A stretch of 63,402 bases of DNA, filler included, from Bilabrum cf. latius (lineage: Eukaryota): the NCBI GenBank assembly GCA_965178125.1. It is 3 parts of 3 records of this genome, joined end to end, with 100 filler letters (N's around TTAATTAATTAA, not from the genome) between each part and the next. Parts side by side here need not be neighbours in the genome. Positions count along the whole stretch, not along the records: positions 23,759 to 47,123 come from CBCXTV010000044.1; 2 more parts are not named here. The stretch is one strand, 5' to 3'. The position numbers were made by a program, and so were the translations under genes. How positions within the stretch are numbered: the first letter of the stretch is position 1; each line of letters opens with the position of its first letter. Below, in pieces: positions 23,759 through 47,223 of the stretch. Below the pieces are notes generated by a model that was given only the letters and a program-made list of their open reading frames with translations, did not search any database and was not told the origin of the DNA.

Positions 23759-24138
23759 CCCGCCCATTCCGAATGCAAGAACGGACTCCCGCCCTTTCCG
23801 AGATCGAGAGCGCATCGCGGGCGCATTTCCCGACTCGCGATCGGCCTCGGAAACCGAACACGAATCGGTAGGAGACGTGCGCCCGCGTTTGAAGAATATG
23901 CGGAGAAATACGAAGCCAAGGACACGAGCATCTCCCGGGCACCTTTCCCGACTCGCAGCCGGTCTCAGAGACGACCACGAATCGGCACGACAAGTGCGCC
24001 CGATTTCGTCCCCCGAAAAAGGACACAACTAGGACCCCGCGGAGATCCGCATCTGCTCCTCACGCGCGGAACGTGTTTCGGTACGCAAAAAGCGGTCACA
24101 TGGGAGGCCCGGAAAGCGTCCGGAAAACGGTTCAGAAA

Positions 24139-26391: not shown

Positions 26392-26581
26392 TGAGCACCG
26401 CCGGATGGGCCGGCGACTTAGGAAGAAGTCGCGAACCGGGAGGAAACACGCGAGGCCGCTTGAAACCGACATCTCCGGCAAGAGGCGCAAGCATCTCCAC
26501 CTCGCCCTCCGGGGCGTGCTCGGAGGTCGACGCGGCAACCACGGCCACATACGGTGCATCGGCGATACCGACGTAGGCCAT
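25892..26581 (-). CDS. Hypothetical CxxC...CxxC protein (~229 aa)
   Basis: Intronless ORF downstream of and co-oriented with Rep, with CSSC and CRAC motifs. The reading frame is conserved in the duplicate (24767..25153). Confidence 0.55.
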   Translation of the reverse strand: MAYVGIADAPYVAVVAASTSEHAPEGEVEMLAPLAGDVGFKRPRVFPPGSRLLPKSPAHPAVLITALGSEAPQDTQCVVWSDSKAFDLAEFVCSSCGCNRVMADLNHRMRDRLVRRVQRTLYADDSPCGRGAISCRACREKARDAAPKTSIMNAANKKKISGTLRMQLDLIVETGERKGQRCTAEKILTLGTMKQHRVFERDLYDEAWRGLVRLSGREAWSDDDSWSPR

Positions 26582-26985
26582 CAAGCAACGCACCCACCTT
26601 CGGCCCGCGAGCGTACACGGCGCGCCTACCGGAAGCAGAGGCTTCTGAGACCAAGAAATGTCTCGTCGGCGCGCGACGCGGCGACGTAAAAGCAAACGAC
26701 CCGCCGGGTCCCAACCGCGGCACTGCGGAGACACACACACACTTGCAACCCATCAGGCTGGGTGCCACGTGTGTGTGTGTCAGGCAAGCTCCCAATACTA
26801 GGCAAGCACTCCCCCGGACGAACGCGACGGACCACATGAAACTTGCGGAATGCCCCCATGTAGAAACCACATCCTTTTTGCACACGAAACGCATTGAGGA
26901 CATTAGACCTTCAGGAGCACCGAAGCGGCTGCCGCTGCGGCTCCGGCGCTCGTGTGAACCGGACTGAAAACCTCAGCGGCCGGCG

Positions 26986-29271
26986 TCAGCTCTTCTGCAC
27001 ATCCGTGAGAGACAACAAGTCCTCGTCGAAGTAGAGCCGATCTTTCACCTCCACTTTCGTACAGTTGTTGTCAAGCCACTCGCGGTCCACCGACTCCGTC
27101 ACGTCAGAGCCCCACGAATTCGTGCAGATGATCAGGGCGATACCGTGGAGCCACACAGAGTATGCGAGGCTGTTCGTCTTGCTCTGGCCGAGCAGGGAGG
27201 GGTCAAGGCCAGCCTGAAAGACCTGTTTGTTGTTGACGACCCACAGGGCATTTGCCTCGTCGAACACAATGGCCACATGCCGACTTCGATCGAAGCCACG
27301 GAGCGGAGGTTCCACACTGCCCTGACAGTTCACAACAAGAGTCCTTTCGCTCCCGAAGAGATTCCGCGCGTACACTGTCTTCCCGAACCGGGAGTCCCCC
27401 ACCAAGACAAGGAACTTGAAGCGCATGTGCGCGAACCACTCCTGACGATAGCTCTCGCGCCACTTCTCGACTTCGGGCACCACCTTAAAGGGGCGGAGCT
27501 TCGTCACTACGTGCACCGCGGCCTGCGCGCACACCTCTCTCCTCTCCGCGGCATTCTGTATGTGGAAGTCGATGGCGCGCACTAAGTTCTCGGCGTCCCG
27601 ACACCGATACGCCACGAGTTCCCTTCTCGCGACGTCCGGATCCATTTTGAAGCGTGCGAACAACGCGTGCACGAACTTACCATTGACGACGAAATCGCGT
27701 CCGGCTCGGTAGTTCGTGGCGCAAAGCAGCGCACCGACTTTGGGAGCTTGACAATAATAGTGTAACTCCGACGCGCCACGTTCCTGCGCTTTCGCTGACC
27801 GCCCGGAGCCGTACACGACATTCGGCCTGCTGCCGGCCCACATGAAATCCTCCGCCACGCGACAACGATGCGACTTCTCGGAATCCGTCATGCATACGTG
27901 GAAGTGCACCAAGTTTGCGGCGTGCTTGCGGTGCAGGGAGAGCTCCATTTTCATGGACAGCTGAGGCCACATCATCCGCCGCGCGATGTCCTGCGCCCAT
28001 GCCTTGAAGGTGGCCCAAAGCTCCACATAGAACGGAGACGCGAGAACCAATCGCCTCAGGACGCCCCTTGCCACGGATGCCGACATGATGTCGCGCACAG
28101 GCTCCTTTTCGACACCCCAGCGACCGTGAAAGGTAAGCATCACGGCCCTTCCCCGCCTCGTGTTCTTGTCGGACGCAGGCACAATCTCGCCCACGGGCAC
28201 TGAATGCGATCCCGGATTCCTCACAACTTCGTCCCGCTGCCGCGCAAGCTCCGGGAAGAGCTCCTCGAAACGAAGCTGGCAAGGAGTGTCCTCCGCCCCC
28301 GCAGCCCAGTCTTTCAAGATGCACATGCGGTCACCGGGTACATTGCGAAGCGCCTCCCTGATGAGGCACCGCTTCCGCTGGTGTGACACCGACGCCGGAA
28401 ACGCCAACTTGAAATCGTCAGGGAAAACCCGCAGGAGACGATAGATGACACTATCAATAGGACGAGTCGAAGGCCTTCCAGTCGAGCGCTGCGGCCCAGA
28501 CGCTCCGGCCGCGGCACGAGCCGCGGGCGGAGGTCCGAGATGAGCCGCAAGACTCGATGCTGCATCGCCCTCAGCAGGGTCGCACTTCTGCCGAAGACGC
28601 CGCCTCTTCACGGGGGGCACGAAATCGGGAAGCATGAGCATCTGCGGTCGCCCCCTCGCATCGGGCGCAGAATCCTCGATGGGCAGAACCCCACGGTAAC
28701 CTTGACTACTCCGCAGAAGCTGCACCGGCAAAAGTACTTCCTCTGACGGGGGTTCCAAATTGATGACACCCGCGGCGAGCGCTTCGGAGGCAGCAACGCG
28801 GCCAGGAATGTCGCCCTCAACGCTGAGGCCCTCATAAAGGACTCGTTCACCCACTACGCCGATCTGCCACTGACCGCTCGACTTGCCGTGGGACAACAAG
28901 CAGGCTCCCGGATCGCCCTCGCATTCTGCCTCGCATGCGACCTCGCATGAGGCCTCAATCATGTCGAGACTGGCGTCGAAGTCGTTCTCCGCATCGTCAA
29001 AGCCAAAACTCGGGACAGCGGCCGCGCGCGCTGCAGCCACCGAATTGGAGACACCGAGGCCACACGAGCACGTTGGGGACGCCTCGGACACCCCTAACAA
29101 AGCAGAGGTCGCCGTCGTGGACGCTTCTGACTCCTGGCTTGTTGGGAGGCCATCGCACGGCACGCAGCTCGCGGAAACCCACGCGGGATCCCAGGAGCAG
29201 GATGCGACTCGGGACTTCAGCGACTCGGCAACAGACAAACTCATCGTTTCGCCCTTGAACGGAGCCGACAT
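26986..29271 (-). CDS. rep: CRESS-DNA-virus-like replication initiator (HUH endonuclease + SF3 helicase) with a long N-terminal extension
   Basis: RCR motif I VMLTF, motif II VHFHV, motif III YYCQAPK. Walker A GDSRFGKT, Walker B IVFDE, motif C IICTN. Intact 761-aa intronless ORF; the Rep core is about 28150-26986. Confidence 0.9.
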   Translation of the reverse strand: MSAPFKGETMSLSVAESLKSRVASCSWDPAWVSASCVPCDGLPTSQESEASTTATSALLGVSEASPTCSCGLGVSNSVAAARAAAVPSFGFDDAENDFDASLDMIEASCEVACEAECEGDPGACLLSHGKSSGQWQIGVVGERVLYEGLSVEGDIPGRVAASEALAAGVINLEPPSEEVLLPVQLLRSSQGYRGVLPIEDSAPDARGRPQMLMLPDFVPPVKRRRLRQKCDPAEGDAASSLAAHLGPPPAARAAAGASGPQRSTGRPSTRPIDSVIYRLLRVFPDDFKLAFPASVSHQRKRCLIREALRNVPGDRMCILKDWAAGAEDTPCQLRFEELFPELARQRDEVVRNPGSHSVPVGEIVPASDKNTRRGRAVMLTFHGRWGVEKEPVRDIMSASVARGVLRRLVLASPFYVELWATFKAWAQDIARRMMWPQLSMKMELSLHRKHAANLVHFHVCMTDSEKSHRCRVAEDFMWAGSRPNVVYGSGRSAKAQERGASELHYYCQAPKVGALLCATNYRAGRDFVVNGKFVHALFARFKMDPDVARRELVAYRCRDAENLVRAIDFHIQNAAERREVCAQAAVHVVTKLRPFKVVPEVEKWRESYRQEWFAHMRFKFLVLVGDSRFGKTVYARNLFGSERTLVVNCQGSVEPPLRGFDRSRHVAIVFDEANALWVVNNKQVFQAGLDPSLLGQSKTNSLAYSVWLHGIALIICTNSWGSDVTESVDREWLDNNCTKVEVKDRLYFDEDLLSLTDVQKS

Positions 29272-29959
29272 TATTTGCGCAAATAATCCTTCGACGAATC
29301 GCGGAATGCCTCAAGATAGAACACTTGCCTCCGACACGCAATGCCCAGAATCCTTGCTGTTCGAAACACCGAAACTGCTGACACGGGACACACATGAGCA
29401 CCGAGGCAGCTGAGTCTGCAGCTCGTGCCGCCCTGGGCGAGGTAGTACCGCTTCCGAGGGAAGGATTCTCGAAGCCAACGAAGGAAAGCATGGCGTTGCA
29501 ATTAGCACGATCACAAACGCACTTCGGAGCCTGCCAGAGAGGATGACCGACCGACCGCCTTCTCGAACATAGAAACCGGCGAATACCACATGAGGCACGA
29601 CGTTCCAGGGCATCCGAACCTGCGACATACGCCAAAAAGGCCTCGCCGACAACCTGAAATGCACGCGAAATCGACAACCGAACGCCCAAAATCAGCCATC
29701 GGAACCCCCCCTCGAGGCAGCGCCTTCGGAGACATTTTCGGCCAGCGAAAAAAATGCGAAACACGACTGGAGGAGGCGAGGTAGTGCTCGGTAGTGCTCG
29801 TTTCGCGCGGTTTTTACATAAAAAAATGCCGTTTTTCTGGAAAAAAAAGCTCAAAAACCCCCAGTTTTTGACACGTAGTGCTCCGATTTTCCTGTAAAAT
29901 GCAGGATTTTTTCACGGTAGTGCTCCCCTTTTTTCCGCTTTCCCCGACGCCAGGGACCG

Positions 29960-30026
29960 ATGTAGTGCGATTTTCGGGGAAGGATTCTTAGTACCTTAGA
30001 GGGTACCCCCGAGGGTCGCACTACGT
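29960..30026. promoter_or_regulatory. Stem-loop upstream of rep, candidate rolling-circle origin
   Basis: The arms ATGTAGTGCGATTTTCGGGG and CCCCGAGGGTCGCACTACGT enclose TCTTAGTAC and an inner GTACC/GGTAC hairpin. GTAGTGC repeats precede it (29780-29925), and a conserved second copy lies at 45677-45742. Confidence 0.45.
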
Positions 30027-30446
30027 GGGTTTGGGGGGTCTCCTTTCCTCTTATTCTCGCGTGCACTTTTCTGCGACTGCCCCCCGGACCTTCCGCGCAT
30101 ATCTGCTCGCTCTGATTCTACGGGGGGGCGGGGGTAATCAAGGATTAATGCCAAATTTGTCTTCCTTTCGTGCCCCTCCCGTTTTTCAAAGTTGTGCATG
30201 TCGAGTCTGCCCCTCCCGTGCTCTTGACGACGGTGCTCGCGGACTGAGTGATTTCTGCCAGCACGTCCCGTGTATGCTGTCCGAGTGCGCGACTCCGCTG
30301 GGCAGCCGCATCCGCTGCTTTGTGCTGCTCGGGCTATCTGTGTCCGTCAAGACTGCGCTGTACTTGACGCTCTGCCCTCTTGCGATGGCTTCTGTGACGC
30401 GGGGTCTATCTGTAATCCTCGGTTCTCTGAACACGGGAAGCGCTTC

Positions 30447-30917
30447 TCACAAGGTCGACTTCGCCTGGCTCGTTGAGGAGTTGGCGGAGCTGCGTGCTGC
30501 GATCTCTTCTTTTTGCACCAACTGCAAGATCTTCCTGTCTAGCACGATTTGGGCGAGCTCGTCGTCTGTGAGTTTTTTGGCGTTCTTCATGGTGCGCCTT
30601 TTCTGCCGGATGGTTTTGCGGATGGCCTTCGTTTTAGCCCGCTGCTCGAGCTTGAGAGCCTTGCGCTCCTCGGTAAGGCGTGTGATCGCTGCCGTCCACT
30701 TGTCGACGAACAAGGGTGTGTCGCCAGGTTCGTCCGTCTTGGCGGTCTTCTCTAGCGCTTCCATGTGTCCGTCTTTCGGGCAGGGCTCCTCGAAGAACTG
30801 CTGCGCATGATCTGGTTTCTGTGATCCTGCCTCCGTCGCTTCGGGTGGCGCCGCTGCATCCGCATCTCTAGGGGAGTCGAGCCGCATTGCGTCCTCCGGT
30901 TCTGCGTCGCTCGCCAT
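30447..30917 (-). CDS. Small protein with an acidic N-terminus and a basic coiled coil (156 aa)
   Basis: ITRLTEERKALKLEQRAKTKAIRKTIRQKRRTMKNAKKLTDDELAQIVLDR. A degenerate copy of its 3' end is at ~44550-44700. Confidence 0.65.
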   Translation of the reverse strand: MASDAEPEDAMRLDSPRDADAAAPPEATEAGSQKPDHAQQFFEEPCPKDGHMEALEKTAKTDEPGDTPLFVDKWTAAITRLTEERKALKLEQRAKTKAIRKTIRQKRRTMKNAKKLTDDELAQIVLDRKILQLVQKEEIAARSSANSSTSQAKSTL

Positions 30918-31792
30918 GGGGTGTGCAGTGAGTTTGCTTCCTGAGCGGGCTGCTTTTCTGTGCGAAGCTTCTGGCAGTTGCTGTATTCCTGGGCCCAAAA
31001 AAAACTCAGCGAGAAGTGCTTTCACATGGAGGTGGTGCGGTAAGAAGTGCGCGGGTCCTTGTAGACTGAAGTGCTTCCTGCGCAGAATGGGAGAAGTTCC
31101 ACTGCGGGGTCTCTCAGACGCGTCTGCATGAGGAGGTGGGGGGTGCGTCATGGTTGCATGCGAGAAGGTGAGCTTCGAGGCGGCGCCTGGGAAAGCCTTT
31201 CTGGGTCGTCTGGATGCTGCGAAATTTGCGAAAAAGGGGTCCCAATTTTGGGCCCGTTTTCGGTGACAATTTCAAGCCTCCCGCATCGTGTTTTCCTCTT
31301 GTGTACCCCTTTTTGGGCTCAAAACTGGTCCCGGAAAGTGTGACCTCGAAACTGCGTCCTTCGCGGTCCTCCCTTTGGCTTCTGGGGCCTCAGGTGTTTC
31401 CCTTTTTTCTGTGGGCAGCACTCTTTTTTGCGGAAGGGCGTTCCAGATTTTTGTCTGACGATGCCGCTTTAAAAAAGGACTTCTGATGTGGTGCGTGCTG
31501 GGTCCTGTCATCTCCAGACTTCCTCCGAGGATGCACACATGAGCGGGAAGAGGACACACATTGGCAGAAGAACTTCTGGACTTGTGACTCTGAAGCGCTT
31601 TGCGACTTTGGCACTGCGTGCTGCCAGCGTTCATGCACCGAGAGCATGCGGATCTCCACGTGCTATGCGACTTCCGGAGAGAATGGGACCGATGGAACTA
31701 TGTGACCCTCCAACTCCGGCGCTCGGCGGCCTTCTGCTGTTGCCTGCGGAGCTTTGTCTCCTCGCAACGCGCTGTTCCGCGGCATTTCGTCG

Positions 31793-34353
31793 TCAGGGCT
31801 CGTGCTTTACGCCGGGTGCCGGGGTCAGGCGCGCTCTCTTCGAAGGCTGTGCCTCAGTCCTGTTGGTGGAGGGCGACCTGGAATAGGATGAGGACGATCT
31901 GGAGCAGGATCTCGTGTCCTTGAGGCTTACGCTCCTCGCGAGCTTCAACGAATTCCCGTGGAAGGTCCGCGGAAGGCTCACGTACTCCTCCTCGTCCACG
32001 TCATACGGCTCACTGCCCTGCTGCTGCCGCCACTGGTTGATCACAAGCTTGATGAACGTTTTGCCCCAGCTCCATTCGGAATGACTCTGTGCCTGCTCGG
32101 TGAGCCACTTGTTGTATGCGATGTTCACCGTTTTGATGCCCTGCACCGCGGTGTAGAGATGCCCCGCGTTGAAGCGGTAACCTCGGTCGTCGGCATCCTG
32201 AAGGTTGTACCGGAGCCGGGCGTCCGCATGGCCGATGTCGTCCGAGGGGATGTGCTCGAAGACCTTTTGGCACTGGCGGCTCACGAACGGGTCGACGATG
32301 CACTGCGTGCTTTCCGCGTACTTGATCATGTGCCACATGGCTTCCTCGGCAAACCATTTGGAATAACTCAAGAGGTTATAGGTCTTGTCCTTGGCCCTTG
32401 AGTAGTTGTTCGCAATGTCCCGCAGTGCGGGCGAGTCCAGCACGGCGCGCCTCGTCTGGCACAGCGGGCCGTTCTTGAGGAGCTGCTTCCTGTTGCTCTT
32501 GTGCGGAGCGTACAGAGTTCGGATGACGTCTGGGATCACGGTGTCCGTGGCAGTCCTGCCCTTAAACATGAAGTGGTTCCAGGCCACGGTCCAGCTCATG
32601 ATGGGATAGTGCACTTGCATCGGAGGTATGAGCGTGAGGAGGCCCACGGTTTTCGCCAAGGATGCTCCCCAAGTAATCCAATCATCACTCGGGTTCTTCT
32701 CGTCGTGCCTCCTTTTGGGGATCATTTTCGGGAGGAGGAACGTTGGCGTTATGATGCGCTCCCTGAACTGCTTCGTGAGGTGCTTCATCATGTCCACCCA
32801 GACCTGTCCCAGCGGTTTGGTTGTCATGCGGATCACGACGAGGCGCGAGCTGCTGTCCCCCTTTAGGATGTCTTCCAACTCGTTCTGCAGCGCCTGCTTT
32901 GCCTCAAGGATGTAGTACTGGATGCTGTTGTCCTTCCCGCCGTTCATCCACTCCTGCTGCTCCTCTTGGCATCTCCCCTCGAGGCAATGCGCCGCCAAGT
33001 CCCTGTCGTCGCAGAGGACAAGCGCGTGGGTTGAGGGTGGCCACTCCAGCCATGAGGGCAGCTCGGCCCCCGGCATCTCCGTGTGGAGTTTATCGATCCA
33101 CTTCTGCTTGACTTGGATCCATCGAGCGGTCTGCCATTTCAAGGGAGGCAGGGTGTTCATCTTGGGCCTCTTCATGGCTACCATGTCGAGCATTCTGTCG
33201 AGGGTGGGGATGCACATCATCGGCTGCACCACGTGGATGCGGATGTCTCCGTACCTCAGGAAGTACGAATACGACCCGCCGCGTTTGTCCTGGAGGAGGT
33301 GGACGAACGTGTTGGTTTCGCCGGCGTGCTCGTGAACACCGCACAAGTCTTCGTAGGAGATGGGCACGCGCTCTGTTTTTTCCCAGACGAGGACAACCCC
33401 CCAACTCAGGGCCGCGCACACGGACATCACGACGGACAATGTGTTTAATCGCTCGCCAAGAGTCCAGTCGTCACTCGGGTCGATCATTATGTACGGTTTC
33501 ATACTGTGCCCTGCATCCGCACTTCGTCGTCCCGAGCCCCCCCACTCCGTGTCCATGCTCTCGGGAGTCGATGCGAGGACCGGGCTGGCTGCCAGCACAG
33601 ATGTCATGCGGAGGCAATCTTCCCACTTCCATACCGGCCCTTGGAACGTGTCGAAGAGGCGGCGCCAGACGCAGCGTTCGAAGCTTCGGTTCGGGATCCG
33701 CATCTTCAGGAGCGCTTCCTCCCCTCCGGGCTGATGAGATACCACTTTAGGCCCATGCCGACGTGGTAGGGGACCACAAATGTGTTGTCTACCCAGTGCG
33801 CCGGATAGGTCCGCACGTCCAAGAGGCGCTCGCAATTGTGGATGGAGGTGGAGTTTTCGCGCTGGAGGTTGACCATTCTCGGTGCTTCTGACCCCGCTAA
33901 CATGGCCATCTGCGTCACCTTGGGGTTTTTCGCGATGGCGTGAAGAACTACGAGTAGCCGATCCACGCATGCTTCGCGAGGTTCGATATCATCTTCGACA
34001 ACCATGAGCCATTCCGTCGGCGTGTGGTTCTCAGCCCACAGCCATGCGTTTCGATGGGATTGGATCGCCCCAACAGTGGCCGGATTGTATTTGCTCCAGT
34101 CCGTTATCTTGCCGGAGAAGATATCCAAGAGGGCCTGGTCTTTGACGATGTCGCGTCCATCTGGGTCCCTGTCGGTCTGCGGAAACACTGGATTGGGGAG
34201 CCGAAGGACCGCTCCCATGTGCTCGTGGAGTTCTCGCGCCCCTTTTTTTTGTCGCCACTCCTCGAAGCGGGACTCTTCCCTGCAGATCAGCAGACATGTC
34301 ATCTTCCCGAGGTCCTGGCGATGGTGTCCGAATTGCGCCTGGAAGCCCGACAT
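31793..34353 (-). CDS. Glycosyltransferase fusion: GT25-like domain + fucosyltransferase(GT-B)-like domain; 1-nt frameshift at ~33714
   Basis: GT25-like GAIQSHRNAW...WLMVVEDD and GLKWYLISPEGRK(A)LL, followed by TLGERLNTL...GVVLVW...ISYEDL (cf. GLGNRL...W...F.DLF). The duplicate at ~39100 has the extra G (AAGGCGCTC) that restores the frame. Confidence 0.65.
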
Positions 34354-37227
34354 CTCCAGAGACGGGAAATGGCATGCGCTGTGTGTCCAGCGGCGATCTT
34401 GCACTTCTGCTCCCGAAACTCGCGAATGCAGGATCCGGGAACATGAGCCTTGAAGGCGGCGGATTTTTGGATGGGGGACACCCGCGTCCTCTCTTCGCGA
34501 GCTTCGTCCTGATCCGATGCCCCAATTGAGCGCTCGACAGCAGGAACGATGAGGAACCTCAGTTCTGGTTTCGCATGTTTGCATGGCCTCTGGAAGCATG
34601 TCGTGTGCAGACCCTCCAAGCGCCTCGATGTCTGAGCATCGCTTTCTCTCCGCACGCTTCGTGCAAGGAATGCAACTCGTGCGTACCATCGTGGACTACG
34701 GGTCACAGAGACTCGGAAAGGGGAGCATGCCCGAATGCACATCGCGGACGGAATTTGTCCCACGCTATTGAAGGTGGTCACCGGACTCAGACTGCTGCGG
34801 TGCATGCTTCGCGCATTGAATGGAGGCGCGTAAAATCTTGCAGAATGCACAGAGGGGGTCATCCGAGCGGGATCTTTGTGTAGCATCTAGAGCGGCAGAT
34901 CGTGCGCAGGGGAGAATCCACACGCGGACTCCGAGGAGTGAGTAAGGCCGGCCCTGGAAGTCGTGCCGCGAAAGCGAATGAGCGCAACATGGCGACTGAC
35001 GGACGTCGCACGCTACGTACTTGTGGTCGCCCTCGTCCGGTCGCCCATCCCGGCGAATGGTGGCGCTGCAAGATCTGCGATGCCCGTCCGTGCCCGTCCC
35101 TCCTGGACGGCTCTGCCGAGGATCAGGGACGCTCTGGTTGTTTTTCCCTGAGCACCTGCGTTTCGAAAGCGGTCTTCCGCGTTTGCTACTTCCCCTTCGA
35201 ACTCCCTGCATTTTTGGCCGGAAAAGGCAACGAAGACAGGCGTGTGCTCCATAGACTGCTCGGACGAGAAGGTGTGTGCAAGAGCCTTTCCCAATCGTCA
35301 CGGGGGGTGAACTGCTGGGTCCGGAATGGATTTGACTCCTGGACTTTTGCGTGTGAAGCGTGAGGTGGGCGTGCTTCGTGGGAGGTTTCCGCATGCGGGG
35401 GGACGGGAACTTTCCTGGGTCGCTGGGCCTGGGACCGGGTAGCGGGAACTCGGGGACTTTCCCCGGGAAATGGATTCACAGAGCGTACGGTGATTTCCCG
35501 GGTCGCCCTTCTCGACCCCGAAGTGGAATTTGGCTTTCGGACCCGAATACAAGCTTAGAAGGAACTTTTTGTCTTCCGCGCCTGCGAAGGTGTGCCACGC
35601 GGGCGGTTCTTGTTCACGCACTTGCGCTGCAAGCAGTGAACGCGAGGCCGTCTGCGGTTTACGGCTACGTGTCATAGCGCGTCGTAGGATGTCGCGTTCC
35701 AAAAGAAGTCTAGCGGCTGGAGGGCGGTGAGTGAAGTGCACACGTAGTGATCGTGACGAACCGGGCGTCGACACTTGTCCTGGGCGACGTCCGAAACATC
35801 TACGCTGCGCTATTACGGCCAGTCGTGTACGCTTGGTGTCGGAGGGAAGACCCCTACGGTGTATACGGTTGCCGACGAACATAGTGATGTGGTAAGCGCA
35901 TTCGGAAGGGGGCGCACGAACGTGCGAGCAATAGCACGCCATTCCGCGTATCATGGTAGCCTGATATTACATGTGCCGCACAGAATTCTCAATCATTCGC
36001 GAGAAGTGTGTGCGGGGAGTACGCTGGGGTGGATAGAAAAGAGATGTCGTCCGCAGGATGTGTGCTCCCAAGGATTTGCTCGGAAGAATGCGGACGATCG
36101 TTTGGAATGCTGCTTTGCACGCAGACTCTATTTCATAGATATGCCTCCATTCGCTGTGACCCTCGTGCGACCGGCTTCGGACGAGTTCCGCAATCTTCGC
36201 AATCATGTGCATCCCATCTCGAGGTCTGCGGCAGCTTCTCCCGCAGAGGAGCCGCCGTGGGAGCCGCTTAGCATCCCCTCGTCGCAGGGACTTCACGGTA
36301 CGGTGTTGTTTATGTCTCTCGGGGTTTTTGTGATGCTCAGGTGCGCGGCCTCTTGCTCTCTTCGTGACCGATTTCGTTGTCGCAGTGCTGTGGGTCTCCG
36401 TAACGGGAATGTGAGGCAGTCTCGACACCTCGACGAGGTGTCATGCGTCATAAGGATCTGCGCGTCTTTGGTCACGGCAAGAGTGGGCGAGAGTCAAACG
36501 GGCAGAAATGATCGTAGCAGCAGCGCTCACGGGCCCGCGGCTCCGCGGTTCACTCCCGCTTGGGAGGGCTGACCAGCGTGTAGTGGGTGGGTCTTCCGGA
36601 AAGCGCCTAGAGATACTCATCGCATAGCCTTCCCTGGAACGAGTCCAGCATAGCCTTTTTTTTTTTTCGGCGGTCGTGGGGAGATACAATTCTCCCGCTG
36701 CGGAAGGCTGCACACTCCCGCATCGTGAAGTCAATCACGCAACACCGTGCCGACTCATGTACCGAGACCGATGCATCTTACCGTCAGCGGCGCTGGTGGA
36801 AGCCGCGCTGCGAACAAGCTCCTCTGCACCAGTTACCCCGCCTTTCCAATTCTCGCGCAACTGAACGTGACTCCTGTGGATACGCAGTTTCTTCACCCAG
36901 GGCGGGTGCTTCGCAACGTCGTGCGTGCCCCCTCTTGCCGTCGCGGGTGCTGAGACGCCTTCATGGTCATAAGGCGCCCTGAGCAGACTGCAGCGCGACT
37001 TCCAGTGACATTCCCGGCAAGAACACACTGCAGCTCACATGCAGCGAGCGGAAGGACCCAATCCCGCGCGTGGGGAGGCGCTATCGTGTTGTGTTGTGTG
37101 TCGTGTTTGTGGTTTATGTCGAGCTTTCGGCACTGCGCGGAATCGGGAATTTCGGGGGTCCTTGGGCCCGGAATCGGGGACCGGAAACTGAGGCAATTTT
37201 CGCCGCCAGATGGAGTGACGGAGAGTA

Positions 37228-38393
37228 CCGTCGTTTTCCGGGTCACCTTTTTCGGTCTCGAAATGGGAATCGGATTTGGGACAGGAATTGAAGCGGAGAA
37301 GGGCCACTCTAGGGCCTCCCGGGAGCCCTCTTGGGGCCCCCAAACAGCAAAACAAACCCCGGGGCCCGAACTGTGTCGCCGCAACTTAAATTCCTTGTGT
37401 GGATCGGCCATTTTTGGCCAAATCTGGGGGGGTCCCCTTCCGGGCCCCCCCAAAACGCTCAAAAAAAAAACACCACAACGTGGCGTTTTGCGTCTTTTTA
37501 GGGCGGTTTAGGGGCTCTAAAATCCACTACAACGTGGCGTTTTGCGTCTCTTTGGGGCGATTTAGGGGCTCTAAAATCCACCACAACGTGGCGTTTTGCG
37601 TCTTTTTTGGGCGATTTAGGGGCTCTAAAATCCACCACAACGTGGCGTTTTGCGTCGTTTGGGGGCTGCCTGGGGCCCATTTTTTCCACCACAACCTCGC
37701 GTTTTGCCCTTTTTGGGGCCGGGAGCCCTCTCGGGGCCCCCAAACCGCAAAAACAAACCGGGGCCCGAACTGTGTCGCCGCAACTTAAAGTCCTTGTGTG
37801 GATCGGCCATTTTTGGCCAAATCCTGGGGGGGTCCCCTTCCGAGCCCCCCGAAAACGCTCAAAAAAAACACCACAACGTGGCGTTTTGCGTCTTTTTTGG
37901 GCGATTTAGGGGCTCTAAAATCCACTACAACGTGGCGTTTTGCGTCTTTTTTGGCGATTTAGGGGCTCTAAAATCCACCACCACGTGGCGTTTTGCGTCT
38001 TTTTTGGGCGATTTAGGGGCTCTAAAATCCACCACAACGTGGCGTTTTGCGTCGTTTGGGGGCTCCTTGGGGCCCATTTTTTCCACCACAACCTCGCGTT
38101 TTGCCCTTTTTGGGGCCGGGAGCCCTCTTGGGGCCCCGAAACAGCCAAAAAAAAGCCGGGGTCCGAGCTGTGTCGCCGCAACTTAAATTCCTTGTGCGGA
38201 TCGGCCATTTTTGGCGAAATCCCCGCATCTGCTCCTCACGCGCGGAACGTGTTTCGGTACGCAAAAAGCGGTCACATGGGAGGCCCGGAAAGCGTCCGGA
38301 AAACGGTTCAGAAATAAGTACCGTCGTTTTCCGGGTCACCTTTTTCGGTCTCGAAATGGGAATCGGATTTGGGACAGGAATTGAAGCGGAGAA
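37228..38393. repeat. Nested tandem repeats rich in A/T tracts
   Basis: ~57-bp subunits (CCACAACGTGGCGTTTTGCGTC...GGGGCTCTAAAAT) sit inside ~420-bp higher-order repeats. 37228-37300 recurs at 38321-38393. Confidence 0.9.
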
Positions 38394-38534
38394 CGGACCC
38401 CAAGGTGTTACCTCTTGCCTCCATACGATGCTAGGATCTCCAGGTTTCTCAGTTTTAGGCAGCACTCGAAGGGGAAGCTTCCGACGGCGCGCCTATGACA
38501 TGCTGCCACCCATCACCGTGGTCATCTGGAGGAC

Positions 38535-38845
38535 TCCGCACCATTCGGAAAACGGCTCGCCCGCCGTGAGTGAACCACACAGCGATCGCCGTGTGCATCA
38601 GTAGGACCCCCGCACCATTCGCGGAAAACGGCTCGCCCGCCGTAAGTGAAATGGCGTCCCGAAGGACCCGTGCTCCTTTTGAAAAACGGCTCGCCCGCCG
38701 TGTGTCCGCCGTGAGTGAACCAGCGATCGCCGCGTGCATCAGTAGGACCCCCGCACCATTCGGAAAACGGCTCGCCCGCCGTAAGTGAAATGGCGTCCCG
38801 AAGGACCCGTGCTCCTTTTGAAAAACGGCTCGCCCGCCGTGTGTT
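38535..38845. repeat. Tandem repeat block
   Basis: GAAAACGGCTCGCCCGCCGT occurs about 5 times within a ~135-bp duplicated unit. Confidence 0.85.
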
Positions 38846-38899
38846 CCCGAGATCCTCCAGCCACGCCACCAGTCAATGTTCTCGCTCGCCGTTACGTCA

Positions 38900-41800
38900 T
38901 GGAGCCCCACGAAGTCGTGCAGATGATCAGGGCGATACCGTGAGCATCCTCCTTCTCCGTCTTCTTGCCGCCGTCGTACAGCCTGGCCGCGACACGATCT
39001 TGATGCCAAAACTCGAGGTTTCGCCGGCGTGGAACGTGTCGAAGAGGCGGCGCCAGACGCAGCGTTCGAAGCTTCGGTTCGGGATCCGCATCTTCTAGAG
39101 AGCGCCTTCCTCCCCCTCCGGGCTGATGAGATACCACTTTAGGCCCATGCCGACGTGGTAGGGGACCACAAATGTGTTGTCTACCCAGTGCGCCGGATAG
39201 GTCCGCACGTCCAAGAGGCGCTCGCAGTTGTGGATGGAGGTGGAGTTTCCGCGCTGGAGGCTGACCATTCTCGGTGCTTCTGACCCCGCTAACATGGCCA
39301 TCTGCGTCACCTTGGGGTTTTCGCGATGGCGTGAAGAACTACGAGTAGCCGATCCACGCATGCTTCGCGAGGTTCGATATCATCCTCGACAACCATGAGC
39401 CATTCCGTCGGCGTGTGGTTCTCAGCCCACAGCCATGCGTTTCGATGGGATTGGATCGCCCCAAGAGTGGCCGGATGGTATTTGATCCAGTCCGTTATCT
39501 TGCCGGAGAAGATATCCAAGAGGGCCTGGTCTTTGACGATGCCCTGCATCAACTGGTCCTGCACCGCACACTGCATGCACGATGGCATCGCGGAGATGAA
39601 TTTCTCCGCATTCCGGAGAAGCTCCATGGCCCGGTTGATGTCATCCAAGGCCTCGTCACGCGAAGGACTCTGACGCACGGCGTTGCTGCAGGAGGCGGCG
39701 CCTCCTGCAGGAGGCTCGTCGCGTGCGGGAGCACGAGCGTCGTTGTCGCCGTCACCGGTATTCGCGCCAGCTTTTGGCACCCAACGCTTCGCTTCACCCG
39801 CAGAGGAACGGACATCATGGAGACTCCAGCCACGCGCAACCAGGCACTTCGCGCACCAGTCCTCAGGGAAGAAATAGCGCAGGTTCTCCTTCTTCCGGCG
39901 GTTCTGGGGAAATCGGTACGCCGGATACTCGTTTTTGCAGTTCTTGCACCACACCCACCACGGCGTCGCGTTGTCGAACTTGTCGCAACACACCCAGCAA
40001 ACTGGTTGGATCCAGTCCTTCCACTTCTTGAAGTACGCCGACCGGGGCTTGCAGCACTGGCACGCGTTGCAAGTCCATGTCGCCTCCTCCGCCGGCTCCG
40101 GCGCGACCTGCCGCGGCACGTACGTCTCCCCCCATGACGACTTCGCAGGGGTCTCCCATAGATCCCAGCTATCAGCGCCAGAGACCGCCCCGGCAGTGTG
40201 CGCAAGATTCACACGCTGCGATGACAATGCCTCTGCCACGCCGCCACCCGCCTTCCAAGCGGCTGCGTCGGTCCATACGTCGTCATTACCTCCGGGCACC
40301 ACAGCACGTCCACCGCCGCGAGCATCCTCCTCCTCCGTCTTCTTGCCGCCGTCGTCTTCGGCGTCCTCCTTCGGCGCTGCCTTGCCGCTCTCCTCTCCGA
40401 GCATCCCCGTGGACGCCGCCTCCGCGCCGCCGCTCTCGATGTGGGAGCCGCCCGAATCATCGACGCTTGCCGCCGCGCCGGCGTGCTCCGCCGGGGCGTC
40501 GACCTCGCGCGCCAACATGCCGCCCTCGTTTCCCATATCACCGGCGCCTCGACGCCCACGAAGATTGCGGCCGTCTCCCAAGGAAACAGCAATGCTCTCG
40601 GACGGTTTCTCCTCAGACATCATCGGCAAAGAGACTCGGAGAATGCCGTTCCCGCAGAGTGCGCTGCTGACTGCCGAAGCCGAAAGAGGACCCGCGGAGA
40701 AGGAATCTCGCACATGCTCCCAGGAAAAGCAACTCCCCGCCCATTCCGAATGCAAGAACGGACTCCCGCCCTTTCCGAGATCGAGAGCGCATCGCGGGCG
40801 CATTTCCCGACTCGCGATCGGCCTCGGAAACCGAGATCTCCCGGGCACCTTTCCCGACTCGCAGCCGGTCTCAGAGACGACCACGAATCGGCACGACAAG
40901 TGCGCCCGATTTCGTCCCCCGAAAAAGGACACAACTAGGACCCCGCGGATCTCCGCCGGAAACTCGTTTTTGCAATTCTTGCACCTCACCCACCACGGCG
41001 TCGCGTTGTCGAACTTGTCGCAACACACCCGGCAAACTGGTTGGATCCAGTCCTTCCACTTCTTGAAGTACTCTGACCGGGGCTTAGGCCCTGGCACGCG
41101 TTGCAAGTCCATGTCGCCTCCTCCGCCGGCTCCGGCGCGACCTGCCACGGCACGTACGGCTCCCCCCATGACGACTTCGCAGGCGTCTTCCATGAACCCC
41201 AGGTTCCGACATCCTTCCCGTCTGCCACGCCGCCACCCGCCTTCCAAGCGGCTGCGTCTGACCATACGTCGTACACGACATTCGGCCTGCTGCCGGCCCA
41301 AATGAAATCCTCCGCCACGCGACAACGATGCGACCTCTCGGAGTCCGTCATGCATACGTGGAAGTGCACCAGGTTTCCGGCGTGCTTGCGGTGCAGGGAG
41401 AGCTCCATTTTCGTCCCGCTGCCGCGCAAGGTCTGGGAAGAGCGTCCGCATGGCCGACATCATCCGGAGCAGGGCGTCCGCATGCTCGACATCATCCGGG
41501 GGATGTGCTCGAAGACCTTTTGGAACTCGCGGCTCACGAACGGATTGACGATGCTCTGCGTGCTTTCCGGGGGGATGTGCTCGAAGACCTTCTGGAACTC
41601 GCGGCTCACGAACGGATTGACGACGCTCTGCGTGCTTTCCGGGGGGATGTGCTCGAAGACCTTTTGGAACTCGCGGCTCACGAACGGATTGACGACGCTC
41701 TGCGTGCTTTCCGCGTACTTGATCATGTGCCTCATGGCTGGGCCGCCCGCAACATCGACGCTTGCCGCCGCGCCGGCGTGCTCCGCCGGGGCGTCGACCT

Positions 41801-44010
41801 CGCGCGCCAACATGCCGCCCTCGTTTCCCATATTACCGGCGCCTTGACGCCCACGAAGATTGCGGCCGTCTCCCAAGGAAACAGCAATGCTCTCGGACGG
41901 TTTCTCCTCAGACATCATCGGCAAAGAGACTCGGAGAATGCCGTTCCCGCCTGCTTGACCCAACTGCAGGCCTGGCACTTGAGGTTGGTGATCACGGCCG
42001 ACTGCTCCCCACCCAAATACCAGACCGTACGCGAGCGCAGCCTATGAGGAATCCACTGGCCCGACTTCCGGGGCACGACCATCGCCAAGAGCTTCGACTG
42101 CGGCGCGTCGATCTGCAACCTCGACCCGCAATCGCTGAGCGTAATGGCGTCGTCGAAGATCCACGTGCCGCCCCAAGCATGCCGCCTGCGCTGCTGCCGG
42201 GAGCTCGGGTTCGGTACCTAAAAGCCGTACACGACATTCGGCCTGCTGCCGGCCCAAATGAAATCCTCCGCCACGCGACAACGATGCGACCTCTCGGAGT
42301 CCGTCATGCATACGTGGAAGTGCACCAGGTTTCCGGCGTGCTTGCGGTGCAGGGAGAGCTCCATTTTCGTCCCGCTGCCGCGCAAGGTCTGGGAAGAGCG
42401 TCCGCATGGCCGACATCATCCGGAGCAGGGCGTCCGCATGCTCGACATCATCCGGGGGATGTGCTCGAAGACCTTTTGGAACTCGCGGCTCACGAACGGA
42501 TTGACGATGCTCTGCGTGCTTTCCGGGGGATGTGCTCGAAGACCTTTTGGAACTCGCGGCTCACGAACGGATTGACGATGCTCTGCGTGCTTTCCGGGGG
42601 GATGTGCTCGAAGACCTTTTGGAACTCGCGGCTCACGAACGGATTGACGACGCTCTGCGTGCTTTCCGCGTACTTGATCATGTGCCTCATGGCTGGGCCG
42701 CCCGCAACATCGACGCTTGCCGCCGCGCCGGCGTGCTCCGCCGGGGCGTCGACCTCGGAAAGTGTTTCGGTACGCAAAAAGCGGTCACATGGGAGGCCCG
42801 GAAAGCATGGCATCACCCTTGCCGTCCCCATCACTGCGTCGTGGGATGCTGCTCAAGATAACTCGGCGTCTGTTTAGTCGAGGGCTGTCTTGACTAGGAG
42901 TTTGGCGGTGAAATCCAGGAGTTCCGTCTGCATCGTCAGGCTCTTGCCTTTCTGTACCATATCAAGAGGAGAGGGAAGACATGCAAAACCGACCCGCGAC
43001 TAATTCTATCCTACGGCCAAGCCACCTGCGGCGTCCGCGCGACTGGGCGTGCACGAGAACCGGCGCACTGCACTGCTTGAAATGCCACGCTCCCGAGCGA
43101 AGGGAGTACGTTGTTCTGCAGAACGCTCTAGTCTTGGTGCGCTTGCAGCGGCACTTATCGGTGCGCCGCGGGGAACGGCTCGCGTGGGATTCGGAGGCGT
43201 ACCCGGCCCACGACGGGAGGAGTTCCCCAGTTACGTCTGGAGTGATTGGGGGACAAGGTGGGCATCAAGTCGGCGCCTCCTGAGCGTATCACAGAGGATG
43301 ACGAACCGCCCGCCCCGCTTCGATCCCGACCTCGAAGTGCACTCGAAATCAAGGCGGAACGCTGGAAATCCGCCCCGAAACCCTCCATGTTTGTTGACAA
43401 GGACCCAGGCTGCGCTCCGACAAGCTGACAAACTTCGTCAGCCTCCGAAGGGTCTTCATTAAATATTCAACGCTTCCGGGGTCAATGAGGTAATGCACTA
43501 CCAAAGAGCAGCTGGGCCGTGTGTCGTCCGAGATGACAAAGATCGTGGGCATCATCGATCCAGAGGGCGTCAAAGGCACGGACGACGCGGGCGACATTGA
43601 CCCCGACGGGCTGGAGGTCCTGGACCGCGTCTGGACGCCCCATCCGGAAGTATTCCTAAGCGCTCCCGACGGACGAGACCTTCTCTGTCTGAAATCAGGC
43701 ACCCAACCCTTCCGCACAAGGTGAAGAGAGAACGCCGACGGACAATATCCTCTCTTTTGCACATCGGGCATCCAACCCCTCCGCACAGGTGAGCAAGCGA
43801 CGAGTTCCCTTCTCGCGACGTCCGGATCCATTTTGAAGCGTTGGAACAATTCGTGCACGAACTTACCATTGCCGACGAAATCCCGTACGGCTCGGTAGTT
43901 GGTGTTGCAAAGCAGCGCACCAACTTTGGGCATCTGACAATAATGGAGCTCGAAGGCGCGGCGCTCCTGGGCTTTCGCTGCCCAACCGGAGCCGTACACG
44001 ACATTCGGCC
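38900..44010 (-). pseudogene. Mosaic of rearranged fragments of rep, the glycosyltransferase gene and a zinc-finger gene
   Basis: Matches include 38901-38942=rep 27107-27148; 39031-39540=33642-34150; 41270-41410 and 42227-42368=rep 27810-27950; 41499-41735=three tandem copies of ~32247-32340; 41949-42218=46478-46746; 43797-44012=diverged rep 27612-27830. Confidence 0.85.
39307..41463 (-). CDS. Chimeric 718-aa ORF with repeated CxxC zinc-binding units, flanked by rep- and GT25-derived pieces
   Basis: CNAC..KPRSAYF...CWVC...CKNC...WCAKC, partly duplicated, fused in frame to the GT25-like segment. Confidence 0.35.
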   Translation of the reverse strand: MMSAMRTLFPDLARQRDENGALPAPQARRKPGALPRMHDGLREVASLSRGGGFHLGRQQAECRVRRMVRRSRLEGGWRRGRREGCRNLGFMEDACEVVMGGAVRAVAGRAGAGGGGDMDLQRVPGPKPRSEYFKKWKDWIQPVCRVCCDKFDNATPWWVRCKNCKNEFPAEIRGVLVVSFFGGRNRAHLSCRFVVVSETGCESGKVPGRSRFPRPIASREMRPRCALDLGKGGSPFLHSEWAGSCFSWEHVRDSFSAGPLSASAVSSALCGNGILRVSLPMMSEEKPSESIAVSLGDGRNLRGRRGAGDMGNEGGMLAREVDAPAEHAGAAASVDDSGGSHIESGGAEAASTGMLGEESGKAAPKEDAEDDGGKKTEEEDARGGGRAVVPGGNDDVWTDAAAWKAGGGVAEALSSQRVNLAHTAGAVSGADSWDLWETPAKSSWGETYVPRQVAPEPAEEATWTCNACQCCKPRSAYFKKWKDWIQPVCWVCCDKFDNATPWWVWCKNCKNEYPAYRFPQNRRKKENLRYFFPEDWCAKCLVARGWSLHDVRSSAGEAKRWVPKAGANTGDGDNDARAPARDEPPAGGAASCSNAVRQSPSRDEALDDINRAMELLRNAEKFISAMPSCMQCAVQDQLMQGIVKDQALLDIFSGKITDWIKYHPATLGAIQSHRNAWLWAENHTPTEWLMVVEDDIEPREACVDRLLVVLHAIAKTPR

Positions 44011-46061
44011 TGCTGTCCGGCTCGCACGGTTTGTGGCGCAAAGAGGACGAATGCTCCAACCCGCCGCGCCTGGTAATGGTATGGACGAGCTGGGCGTCAG
44101 TGATCGTTCCTTTTTCCCGGACGCAACGGACCCGATGAAATTTTCGCGCGCTGAGCAGACCCCAAATTTACGATGAAGAAGCCCAAATCCTGCGTCCATG
44201 AAGGCCTTGCGAGGCCGCCTGCTATTGGCAGTCGACGCTCCGGGATCCACTGCGCAATGCAGTTTTGCAGAGCGATGCAGTATGCGCGGGAAGACGGCAA
44301 AATGGATCCGTATCTTTGGGAAGAGGTCTGTGCATCGCACAGCTGCCGCACGGAGAGCTGCTTCCGTTCCACGGCTGGTGAGGGCCCGATGCTGCTCTAC
44401 TCATGCCCCACGGCCACACACTAAGAGGAACGGATTGTGTCAGGATCCCGCCGCAGCATGGGTACGCGGATCTGCCTCCATAGGGACGGACGGGAGGAGC
44501 TGCCGGCGGAGGGCGGGCGGGGGTCCGGCCAAGCCAAGCGGCCAGGTACTTCACGCTCTGCCCTATGGCGCTGGGTTCTGTGAGGCGGGGCCTATCTGTG
44601 ATCCTCGGCTCTGTGAAGGTGCGAAGCGCTATTCACGATTCGACTTCGCCTTACTCCTGGATGAGGCGGCGGAGCTGCGTGCTGGGATCTCTTCCTGTGG
44701 CGTCCGAGCGCGATGGCGAGTGCACGCTTGGCCGTCATAGAGAAAGGCACGGCGAAGTACCACATCTTCGCCACCCACCACATTTCGCCAAGCACCACCT
44801 CGTTGGCAGGCTTCGGGAACGCGAAACGCACAAGTTCTCTTGGTTTCCGCGTTGAGTGTGCCTGACCACGAGCGTCCTTGGCGCCGTCAGCGTGCCTGCT
44901 CTCTGCGTTGATTCGGACGCGTACCCGGCTCGCGTGGGCATGGACCTCCCCAATCCGGCAGAACCGTGAGCTCCTGGCATCCCACCTCTGTCTTAGAAGT
45001 TTTCCGGTTTTTGGCGCAAACCTTCTGGAGCAGACGACAGCAGCGAAAGACCCACCCAAGCTCCGCGGGAAGTGTGATACCTCTACGGTTCCGGCATCTA
45101 CTTGGCCGTGCACATATGCAAGGCGATGCACTACACCTGCGCGTCCGGCTGCACCCGCTTGAACGACAGGTTCCTCTCCATGCAAGTGGTTCCGCGACAA
45201 CAAGGTCGTGGAAGTGACAGACTAGGAGAGTACGCCGGGTTCAGATTCACGCCCATCAGGGACAGGTCCGGGTCCCGCGCTCGCGCTACCGCGTGAGGAG
45301 GCTATGCGCACGTATGAGGAGGGGAGAACTTCGTATAATAGTCTCTCGCAGACTCGAACTTTTGGCTCTCACCGAAGGACGGAATGTTAGCCCTCCGCTA
45401 CTTACGGTGTCTTTAGCTTCCGCCCTACACGTTCCCCGCCCGTGGTCAAGAGGGAGTTTGTCGAGACACGCACCCGCCCGAGAGCTCCGGTCCTCTAAGC
45501 GCTCACGATCTCCCGCCCAGCGCGGTGCGAGCCCGCTTCACCGGGACTTGTCGCGTGCCTACGGAGGTGTCTTTTCCGAACCTGCCACTGAAGACGTTAG
45601 GGAGCGACGGGAAACGGATGCACAACGGTATGCCACCCATGTCCTCGAGGAATCCACCAAGACGTTGTGGCCCGAGGTAGTGCGATTTTCGGGAGAAGGA
45701 TTCTTAGTACCTTATAGGGTACCCCCCAGGATCGCACTACGTGGGTTTGGGGGGTTGGTTTCCTTTCCTCTTGTTTTCGTGTGCACTCTTCTGCGACCGC
45801 CCCCCCCGGGGAACGGATGCACAACGGTATGCCACCCATGTCCTCGAGAGATCCACCGAGATCCGCACATACCTCTGCGGTGAACAGCACGTTACATGAG
45901 ACCCTGACCGACCCGAGAGTCTCTGCCCTCAGTCTCCACGACTTCCCGCAGGATCCGCCCCGCTCCCACCGACGGCTCCTGCCGTACGTACGACGCACCA
46001 TTTTCAAAAGAGCATTGGCACCCGCTCCTCACCTAAGCGACGATACTGTCGCTGCGGTCCC

Positions 46062-47084
46062 TCACGGCACGCTCTCCGGTCCGCCCGGTGCGAACTCAGA
46101 GTCGTCGTCTGTCGAAACGTGGTCGCTGTGGAAGATGTTGCTCTGGCCGTCTGAGGACACGGCATCCTGCCAGTATCGACGCAACTGCTCCGCCACGTCC
46201 ATGGCCGCATGGGAGCTCAGCGGGATCTGCTCGAAGAGAGCGTTACTGTCGTGCACTGCAAACAGCCTGGCCGCGACGCGATCTTGATGGCAAATTTCGA
46301 GTGTGGCGCGGATCCGGAAACAGTAGCCGTCCGGAAAGTTGCCCTGCATCAACTGGTCCTCCACCGCACACTGCGTGCACCAAATAGACCGCTCGGTACG
46401 TCGTATGTAGCCGGGCCACAGGGAATGCAGCAACGAGTACTGAGCCCGACGCAAGCTCTTCGGGTTGAAGCTGTCCGCCTGCTTGACCCGACTGCAGGCC
46501 TGGCACTTGAGGTTGGTGATCACGGCCGACTGCTCCCCAGCCAAATACCAGATCGTACGCGAGCGCAGCCTACGAGGAATCCACTGGCCCGACTTCCGGG
46601 GCACGACCATCGCCAAGAGCTTCGACTGCGGCGCGTCGATCTGCACCCTCGACCCGCAATCGCTGAGCGTAATGGCGTCGTCGAACACCCACGTGCCGCC
46701 CCAAGCATGACGCCTGCGCTGCTGCCGGGAGCTCGGGTTCGGTACCTCGCGAGGCCTGTCGGAAGGGGGGTCCGTCGGCTGCGGTGGTGTCGGATACCAG
46801 GAGAGAGCGGTCCACGGATTGATGCACGTGGACGTTGCCGCCTCGCGCGTCGCCGGAGTGGCTGAGCTGTCTGGTCGACGAAACGGTGGCGCCCACGCCG
46901 TGCAGGCCGCCACCTGCGCGGGCACATCGGGCAAGAATGCGCCTGCAGGTTCACGTGGCCGAGGTCGGGGAAGCTTCGTCGGGGTCAGGGATCCCATCGA
47001 GGAAGCCGCGTTCGCCGCTGGGATGGTCGTGCTCGAGGTTGACGAAGTCGCGTTCGCCCCTGACATGGTCGTGGTCGAGGTCAC
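46062..47084 (-). CDS. Hypothetical CxxC...CxxC protein (possibly Stc1-like zinc domain)
   Basis: LKCQACSRVKQADSF...WCTQC. Pieces of this ORF are reused in the mosaic region. The true start may lie in the gap. Confidence 0.45.
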   Translation of the reverse strand: MTSTTTMSGANATSSTSSTTIPAANAASSMGSLTPTKLPRPRPREPAGAFLPDVPAQVAACTAWAPPFRRPDSSATPATREAATSTCINPWTALSWYPTPPQPTDPPSDRPREVPNPSSRQQRRRHAWGGTWVFDDAITLSDCGSRVQIDAPQSKLLAMVVPRKSGQWIPRRLRSRTIWYLAGEQSAVITNLKCQACSRVKQADSFNPKSLRRAQYSLLHSLWPGYIRRTERSIWCTQCAVEDQLMQGNFPDGYCFRIRATLEICHQDRVAARLFAVHDSNALFEQIPLSSHAAMDVAEQLRRYWQDAVSSDGQSNIFHSDHVSTDDDSEFAPGGPESVP

Positions 47085-47123
47085 GGCATGGCCGCCGAGG
47101 GGTGAGCGCGATCGCGGGGGGTC

Positions 47124-47223
47124 NNNNNNNNNNNNNNNNNNNNNNNNNNNNNNNNNNNNNNNNNNNNTTAATTAATTAANNNNNNNNNNNNNNNNNNNNN
47201 NNNNNNNNNNNNNNNNNNNNNNN
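47124..47223. other. Assembly gap with artificial linker
   Basis: N run - TTAATTAATTAA - N run. Confidence 0.97.

Follow-up and report, generated by a model that had tools for sequence, protein, structure and literature searches.

A TA-AG-TA junction as a probable excision footprint of a Rep-encoding element in repeat units that carry a pogo-type transposase

Introduction

Polintons, casposons and Teratorn join an integrase or a transposase to a replication module, and Helitrons have a RepHel protein, in which a Y2 Rep is fused to a helicase of the PIF1/SF1 type, and make no TA duplication. Replitrons and Helitrons are eukaryotic mobile DNA with HUH Reps related to those of CRESS-DNA viruses, and Replitrons are described as encoding nothing but a Rep, without helicase, as having short direct terminal repeats and no inverted ones, and as inserting by copy-and-paste (10.1101/2022.12.15.520654). 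Tc1/mariner footprints are described as the first or last 2-4 nt of the element; for circles of Sleeping Beauty, the same account expects a CTG or CAG junction after repair of the central mismatch, and it treats such circles as dead ends (PMC6943129). DD35D spacing is recorded in some pogo groups (PMC7325037). There is also a precedent for a Rep and a transposase within inverted repeats, the geminivirus-like transposon of Tuber melanosporum, in which Rep-like and transposase ORFs lie inside terminal inverted repeats; according to its description, it is interspersed and lacks an obvious target duplication, and its ORFs are interrupted; the passages concerned mention no circles or concatemers (PMC3198968).

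The locus analyzed here resembles Tc1/mariner and pogo transposons, as those passages present them, in its TA target, terminal-letter footprints, DD35D triad and CAG/CTG junctions (PMC6943129, PMC7325037). Its pogo features are a DDE_1 domain with a DDxD triad in one segment of the repeat unit and in sister units, and inverted repeats and footprints at the element that lies beside that segment. Unlike the Sleeping Beauty circles of that description, the junction form is amplified here, a Rep-helicase is carried, and one junction-type end abuts a TA. The Tuber melanosporum element, compared by description only, differs from the present one in that here we find open ORFs, TA flanks, head-to-tail units and ongoing excision. 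Compared with Replitrons as described, the units here have inverted ends, a DDE transposase and a Rep with a superfamily 3 (SF3) helicase; a Replitron identity, for which Rep would be the sole domain, was rejected in view of that helicase. A Helitron identity was also rejected, the Rep-helicase core of ~400 aa being CRESS-like with SF3. The Rep shares the HUH plus SF3 fold and features with those of CRESS-DNA viruses, but the units measure 14-27 kb and no capsid gene was recognized among the ORFs scanned. As against Polintons, casposons and Teratorn, a rolling-circle Rep-helicase would serve here as the replication module beside a pogo-type integrase. An excision footprint is in itself standard Tc1/mariner biology; in the mostly open-access literature that we searched, we found no Rep-plus-pogo concatemers or amplified circle-junction units beyond the Tuber element.

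Results

Layout of the window and of the repeat unit

The window, by which we mean the whole stretch of 63,402 nucleotides analyzed from assembly GCA_965178125.1 of Bilabrum cf. latius, is composed of three separate contigs. Its N linkers (23659-23758 and 47124-47223) contain an all-frame stop spacer, and adjacency across them is artificial. Positions 23759-47123 are a single contig, which we take to be G000:C87 as the offsets match, and belong to a head-to-tail repeat with a period of 26-27 kb. Each unit comprises an element of ~12 kb flanked by TA, designated A, and a segment of 14-15 kb, designated B. On C44, a contig of 361 kb with blocks of differing haplotypes, the unit measures 27.2 kb, with 11,986 bp for A and 15.2 kb for B (13.8 kb in the short variant of B). 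We counted 47 left and 46 right ends of A in the assembly; on C44-C49 they are spaced 26-27.5 kb apart, and they also occur on numerous short contigs. The long tandem arrays could be true concatemers, a chromosomal array or the assembler's chaining of circles. Within B lie two paralogous sites, site 1 and site 2, whose outer contexts are distinct. The features that define A and its surroundings are as follows.

24047..24140, + strand: left flank of site 1, with its terminal TA at 24139-24140
24141..37225, + strand: element A, longer than the C44 copy (11,986 bp) because 1,126 bp of its left part are duplicated
24141..24159, + strand: left imperfect terminal inverted repeat of A
25265..25285, + strand: second left end of A, joined exactly to an A-internal TA (target TA then TG, 26390-26393)
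37207..37225, - strand: imperfect terminal inverted repeat at the right end of A, with AG as its last letters
37226..37303, + strand: right TA of site 1 and right flank
37319..38222, + strand: satellite-like repeats between sites 1 and 2
38397..47123, + strand: part of segment B, with scrambled fragments of A-like genes

We considered B as a mobile unit in its own right and rejected this, as only A-less units were seen and the ends of B are asymmetric about TA. In the long variant on C44, a 197-bp near-perfect palindrome lies between site 1 and site 2 (unit positions 13066-13262); it is built from a piece of A's long ORF and is deleted in the window's short variant.

Ends and copies of element A

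The terminal inverted repeats of A are imperfect, matching at 14 of 19 bp, and are in register with the TA on both sides (16/22 at offset 0, at most 10 at 12 other offsets). Their core pattern occurs three times in the window, where 0.09 matches would be expected. A TA is present at 92 of the 93 ends, and all 93 lie inside repeat units and, with the exception of a single internal join, at the same site. That join is A's sole second target, namely the window's 1,126-bp duplication, where a left end meets an internal TA then TG. Although a 4-bp direct repeat spans both junctions of A, the inverted repeats are nonetheless in register with TA. An end-pattern search of the assembly found no complete copy of A at a second target, neither the flank haplotypes nor the end search yielded an ancestral empty allele of A's site, and an end-to-end junction of A is absent from the assembly. 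The pattern matched ten times in viral contigs, always without TA and genes, and we treated these matches as chance.

Two copies of A have histories of their own. That at G000:C48:1620-10544 has a left flank lacking 7 bases, the TA among them, and its right part was lost at a 525-bp repeat common to B. A diverged copy on C63 contains an LTR element of ~2.6 kb (G000:C63:24681-27311) with repeats of 442 bp that are 99.5% identical and a single 543-aa ORF that is copia-like by eye; the unit there has one flank site only.

The second site

A sequence-only reading of this DNA had interpreted 38223-38393 as the empty donor site of the neighboring copy of A, and had offered a concatemeric or tandem unit as the alternative. 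The corresponding features are these.

38223..38316, + strand: left flank of site 2 in the short variant (~270 bp in the long variant, 96% to site 1)
38315..38320, + strand: TA-AG-TA junction of site 2, likely an old excision footprint, identical in 55/55 site-2 copies
38319..38396, + strand: right flank of site 2

The identities on which that interpretation was built are exact (38223-38316 equals 24047-24140 and 38319-38393 equals 37226-37300), the right-flank identity extending to 37303 with one mismatch, and the AG between the flanks does correspond to the last two letters of A's right end (37224-37225). However, the analysis does not support the segment as the empty donor of the neighboring copy. 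It is a paralogous second site that reads TA-AG-TA in all 55 copies, so the tandem alternative was correct as well. Site 2 is likely an old excision scar that was amplified with the unit and is now present in nearly every one.

The insertion site sits within a hairpin made up of the two flanks (window 38296-38333 and 24120-24140). This hairpin folds in a computation made without a shuffle control, and its possible role as a CRESS-type origin comes with no demonstrable nick site. Its arm motif recurs within the terminal repeats of sister units (C59, C61, C73, L206). In view of this, the flanks may represent eroded ends of B or else a Rep origin.

Excision forms at site 1

Using a gapped pattern, we found 66 empty junctions in the assembly: 60 TA-AG-TA, four TA-G-TA, one TA-C-TA and one single TA. 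Eleven were assigned to site 1 by sequence. The other 55 were assigned to site 2: for 53 of these we relied on their lying 0.86-1.6 kb past a right end or past an empty site 1, and of the remaining two, one was placed by its sequence and the other solely by distance. Some 46 copies of site 1 are filled and 11 are empty, and the empty copies read TA-AG-TA (five), TA-G-TA (four), TA-C-TA (one) and single TA (one). Variant forms are thus found in 6 of 11 empty copies of site 1 and in none of 55 copies of site 2 (p = 5e-6). Every empty form consists of TA, 0-2 terminal letters and TA; none of the 66 is longer, and the lack of junctions with three letters kept indicates a 2-nt stagger. Among the site-1 footprints that retain letters, 9/10 derive from the right end (p = 0.02).

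We aligned the flanks of site 1 over 1.4 kb upstream and 1 kb downstream, with 35 copies on each side (10 of the 11 empty copies and 25 filled ones). Upstream, each of the 10 empty copies lies within 0-4 of 53 variable columns of a filled copy; downstream, nine lie within 0-2 of 31 columns and the one on C47 is 11 columns off. The single-TA and TA-C-TA copies show no differences on either side from filled copies on C44. Because its flanks are those of filled copies, the single TA represents precise excision and not an ancestral allele. TA-G-TA was found on three haplotypes, which implies that excision recurred. Taken together, these forms point to repeated recent excision from site 1 with a 2-nt stagger. 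The five TA-AG-TA copies of site 1 could have been templated from site 2; a marker ~32 bp upstream stays of the site-1 type in 4/4 of those checked, whereas site 2 of the same unit differs.

These counts bear on what the sequence-only reading had proposed, namely staggered, TA-targeted cut-and-paste excision, to be examined by counting junction forms. The coexistence of TA-AG-TA, TA-G-TA, TA-C-TA and single-TA forms supports the proposal, and the case that had been named against it, a universal TA-AG-TA with no single TA, is not what the assembly holds, given the single TA in 1/66. Of the forms that had been listed for counting, the filled, TA-AG-TA and single-TA forms were seen; TA-CC-TA, which had been listed as a second footprint, occurs in 0/66 junctions, and the single TA is not the pre-insertion form as which it had been listed.

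Genes of A and B

The ORFs of the repeat unit in the window are listed below.

26986..29310, - strand: Rep ORF, 774 aa from stop to stop, with HUH endonuclease and superfamily 3 helicase, CRESS-like
30447..31271, - strand: ORF of A without significant family match
31793..34695, - strand: long ORF of A, 921 aa in the C44 copy and in two frames in the window copy
47084..47123, - strand: final bases of B's transposase ORF (DD35D, pogo-type), the remainder lying past the contig end and the whole at G000:C44:47102-48907

The C-terminal 404 aa of Rep have a confidently predicted fold (pLDDT 94) that is like the HUH-plus-SF3 Reps of Genomoviridae, geminiviruses and AAV, with TM-scores that, taken over the entire chain, reach only 0.2-0.34. 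In its features this Rep matches those of Cressdnaviricota with very high confidence, and the HUH, Tyr, Walker A/B and motif C positions are invariant. Pfam searches assigned neither Rep nor any other ORF of A to a family, weak P-loop matches were all that a Rep profile returned from PDB sequences, and a word-based search with full-length Rep gave no matches. HMMER retrieved 1,361 clusters at E-values up to 0.001, and those looked up carry no family name. Four protein scans of viral contigs found no relatives of Rep or the transposase, and no capsid family was recognized among the ORFs scanned with Pfam. The long ORF of A has glycosyltransferase-like features (GT11/GT25) at a high score, which we regard as a lead only; it is possible cargo.

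ORF scans found no transposase inside A. That of B is an open ORF of 602 aa with a Pfam DDE_1 match (E = 2.7e-11), a weak Tc5 HTH and a DD35D triad; in addition, pieces of A's genes occur in B in scrambled form. To judge from these ORFs, the transposase that acts on A likely lies outside the Rep element, in B. For the Rep of A and for the transposase of B, the partner is in each case a protein encoded on an ENA contig of 14,535 bp (53% and 54%, respectively), and the equal length suggests that both partners may sit on one contig.

The contigs on either side in the window contain two cytosine methyltransferase-like ORFs (2834-3757 and 57192-59459; Pfam DNA_methylase E = 6.6e-6, PDB 7r76 E = 1.1e-7). 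On the third contig there are also a self-complementary simple repeat (47990-48312) and a palindrome of ~440 bp (48516-48954).

Sister units with Rep and transposase

Other small contigs of the assembly encode distant Reps (26-31%) and distant transposases (22-35%), several of them in repeats of 13.7-15 kb, while C1-C43 show no Rep, transposase or end-pattern match among the matches listed, the protein searches giving lower bounds. In the sister units of 14-15 kb, Rep and transposase occur together in 7/7 contigs examined. All seven, each examined in part, have a junction in which inverted arms share a central CAG or CTG (arm-C(A/T)G-arm), a count that leaves out C52, C57, C75, C89 and C101; on C55, the same arm has CAG at one of its junctions and CTG at a second.

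In metagenomes, 12 of 42 Rep loci also have a transposase, as do 10 of the 13 loci of at least 5 kb, and they represent ~7 distinct lineages. The arm-C(A/T)G-arm junction is seen at L185, L187 and L206, and is not seen at most metagenome loci. Trees of Rep and transposase, built from 19 pairs that leave out the near-duplicates L200 and L206, have their main clades in common (Mantel rho 0.55, p = 0.0002, a figure that overstates independence because the rows are kin).

Two observations are signs of insertion at TA. On C63, a terminal arm of the C50 family ending in CAG abuts an A-internal TA, on one side only (G000:C63:1483-1666), which links the two families in one contig; and at L197:1664-2249 a non-coding element of 586 bp, with 11-bp inverted ends of the CAGT type and TA on both sides, lies inside a Rep-plus-transposase contig. 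No whole sister element with Rep, transposase and TA at both ends was seen. Two further arrangements were noted. In L205:554-6502, L199 and L194, the Rep and transposase genes lie between long inverted repeats (~250-300 bp in L205 and L199, 5.6 kb in L194), which suggests inversion or a different end structure in this clade. G000:C101 has transposase matches and the end motif every 5.9 kb and no Rep among the matches listed, and is possibly a non-autonomous circle of the C50 family.

Occurrence in other samples

The stretch was detected in 15 sequencing runs from 10 studies under 11 organism labels, 10 of the runs containing at least half of its words; no RNA run is among those listed as containing it. 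Of four runs examined, three have coverage in all 30 bins. The filled left junction is spanned without any difference in X5 and X7, and a TA-AG-TA join, at a depth of 6.5, occurs in X11, where the site is not resolvable. A contig from X11 joining A's left end at 29584 was discounted (6 bp of shared sequence, depth 2.7). Given its presence in other samples, the element may belong to a co-occurring organism rather than to chromosomes C1-C43. The LTR element in the C63 copy of A suggests, by inference, a eukaryotic nucleus as host.

Discussion

The overall explanation that we favor, and consider reasonably probable, is that A was cut out by the adjacent pogo transposase, that one scar was amplified and that circles were copied by Rep. 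The transposase in B would cut the ends of A with a 2-nt stagger, and end joining would leave AG, G, C or nothing between two TAs. B's enzyme presumably acts on A, though the ends of A (CC...AG, 2 nt) differ from the CAG ends of the sisters (3 nt). The founding dimer would have held one filled and one excised site, which an internal deletion may have brought to within 0.9-1.6 kb of each other; site 2 would then be an earlier scar fixed in the founding unit, with A still being excised from site 1. A and B may be split descendants of one two-gene element, of which A keeps an intact Rep and B an intact transposase. Excised elements would close into circles through their 3' overhangs, giving the CAG or CTG junction, and Rep would copy these circles by rolling circle into concatemers, whose ends or junctions could re-insert at TA. 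That Rep replicates excised elements is a step toward which we lean only slightly. Several results count against the overall explanation: TA-CC-TA is absent and 9/10 lettered footprints are from the right end; A has no complete copy at a second target, no ancestral empty allele and no end-to-end junction in the assembly; the empty copy on C47 is 11 columns off downstream; the five TA-AG-TA copies of site 1 could be templated; no whole sister element with TA at both ends was seen; most metagenome loci show no junction, L205 and L199 having long inverted repeats of another kind; and the circles of Sleeping Beauty were dead ends.

We hold with considerable confidence that TA-AG-TA is a repair footprint of A's excision. 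The same junction could be ancestral, A having been inserted between TA and AG without target duplication in the style of an HUH enzyme or a recombinase; precise exit would then restore the sequence, and the rarer forms would be imprecise exits. TA-AG-TA is the commonest form (60/66) and does not vary at site 2, an HUH Rep but no transposase was found in A, and TA-CC-TA is absent, all of which would fit. However, an ancestral junction would shorten A's right end by 2 nt and so put it out of register with the TA-symmetric inverted repeat; in addition, A's left end also joins an internal TA then TG, the unit includes a transposase of a TA-targeting type, and related ends have TA on both sides. 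We regard an ancestral TA-AG-TA as unlikely. Far less probable still is that errors in the assembly or the reads account for the rare forms and that A was lost through recombination or gene conversion with site 2. While TA-G-TA is TA-AG-TA minus one A of an AA pair, TA-C-TA and the single TA are known from one copy each, and the forms were read from the assembly and not from raw reads, the variants are confined to site 1 (6/11 empty copies against 0/55 at site 2, p = 5e-6), and the empty copies retain site-1 flanks on both sides and, in the 4/4 TA-AG-TA copies checked, the site-1 type of the marker ~32 bp upstream.

A different question is whether the footprints are real and the units are chromosomal tandem arrays of a pogo element with Rep as cargo, amplified by unequal recombination. 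The 361 kb of C44, with its blocks of differing haplotypes, and the ~2.6-kb LTR element in the C63 copy of A would suit a chromosomal location, and neither circles nor single strands were observed directly. Yet units join at arm-C(A/T)G-arm and not through intact ends with TA, C1-C43 are without Rep, transposase or end-pattern matches among those listed (lower bounds), the motifs of Rep are conserved, and Rep co-diverges with the transposase. Chromosomal arrays appear to us improbable, to about the same degree as an ancestral junction, and we retain excision by the pogo transposase with copying by Rep as the preferred explanation.

For A itself, the footprint supplies the exact ends and the cut position. 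More broadly, the sister and metagenome units may represent a widespread class without a name, a proposal to which we would give an even chance: pogo elements that encode a CRESS-like Rep-helicase of their own, by which excised circles would be turned into concatemers of high copy number, and that could use the circle junction to re-integrate at TA. In the window, the lineage would have split into two dependent halves, one providing Rep and the other the transposase, with excision ongoing. If this is true, a rolling-circle Rep that rescues excised circles would make these elements a eukaryotic transposon-plasmid hybrid, and would tie CRESS Reps directly to DDE transposons.
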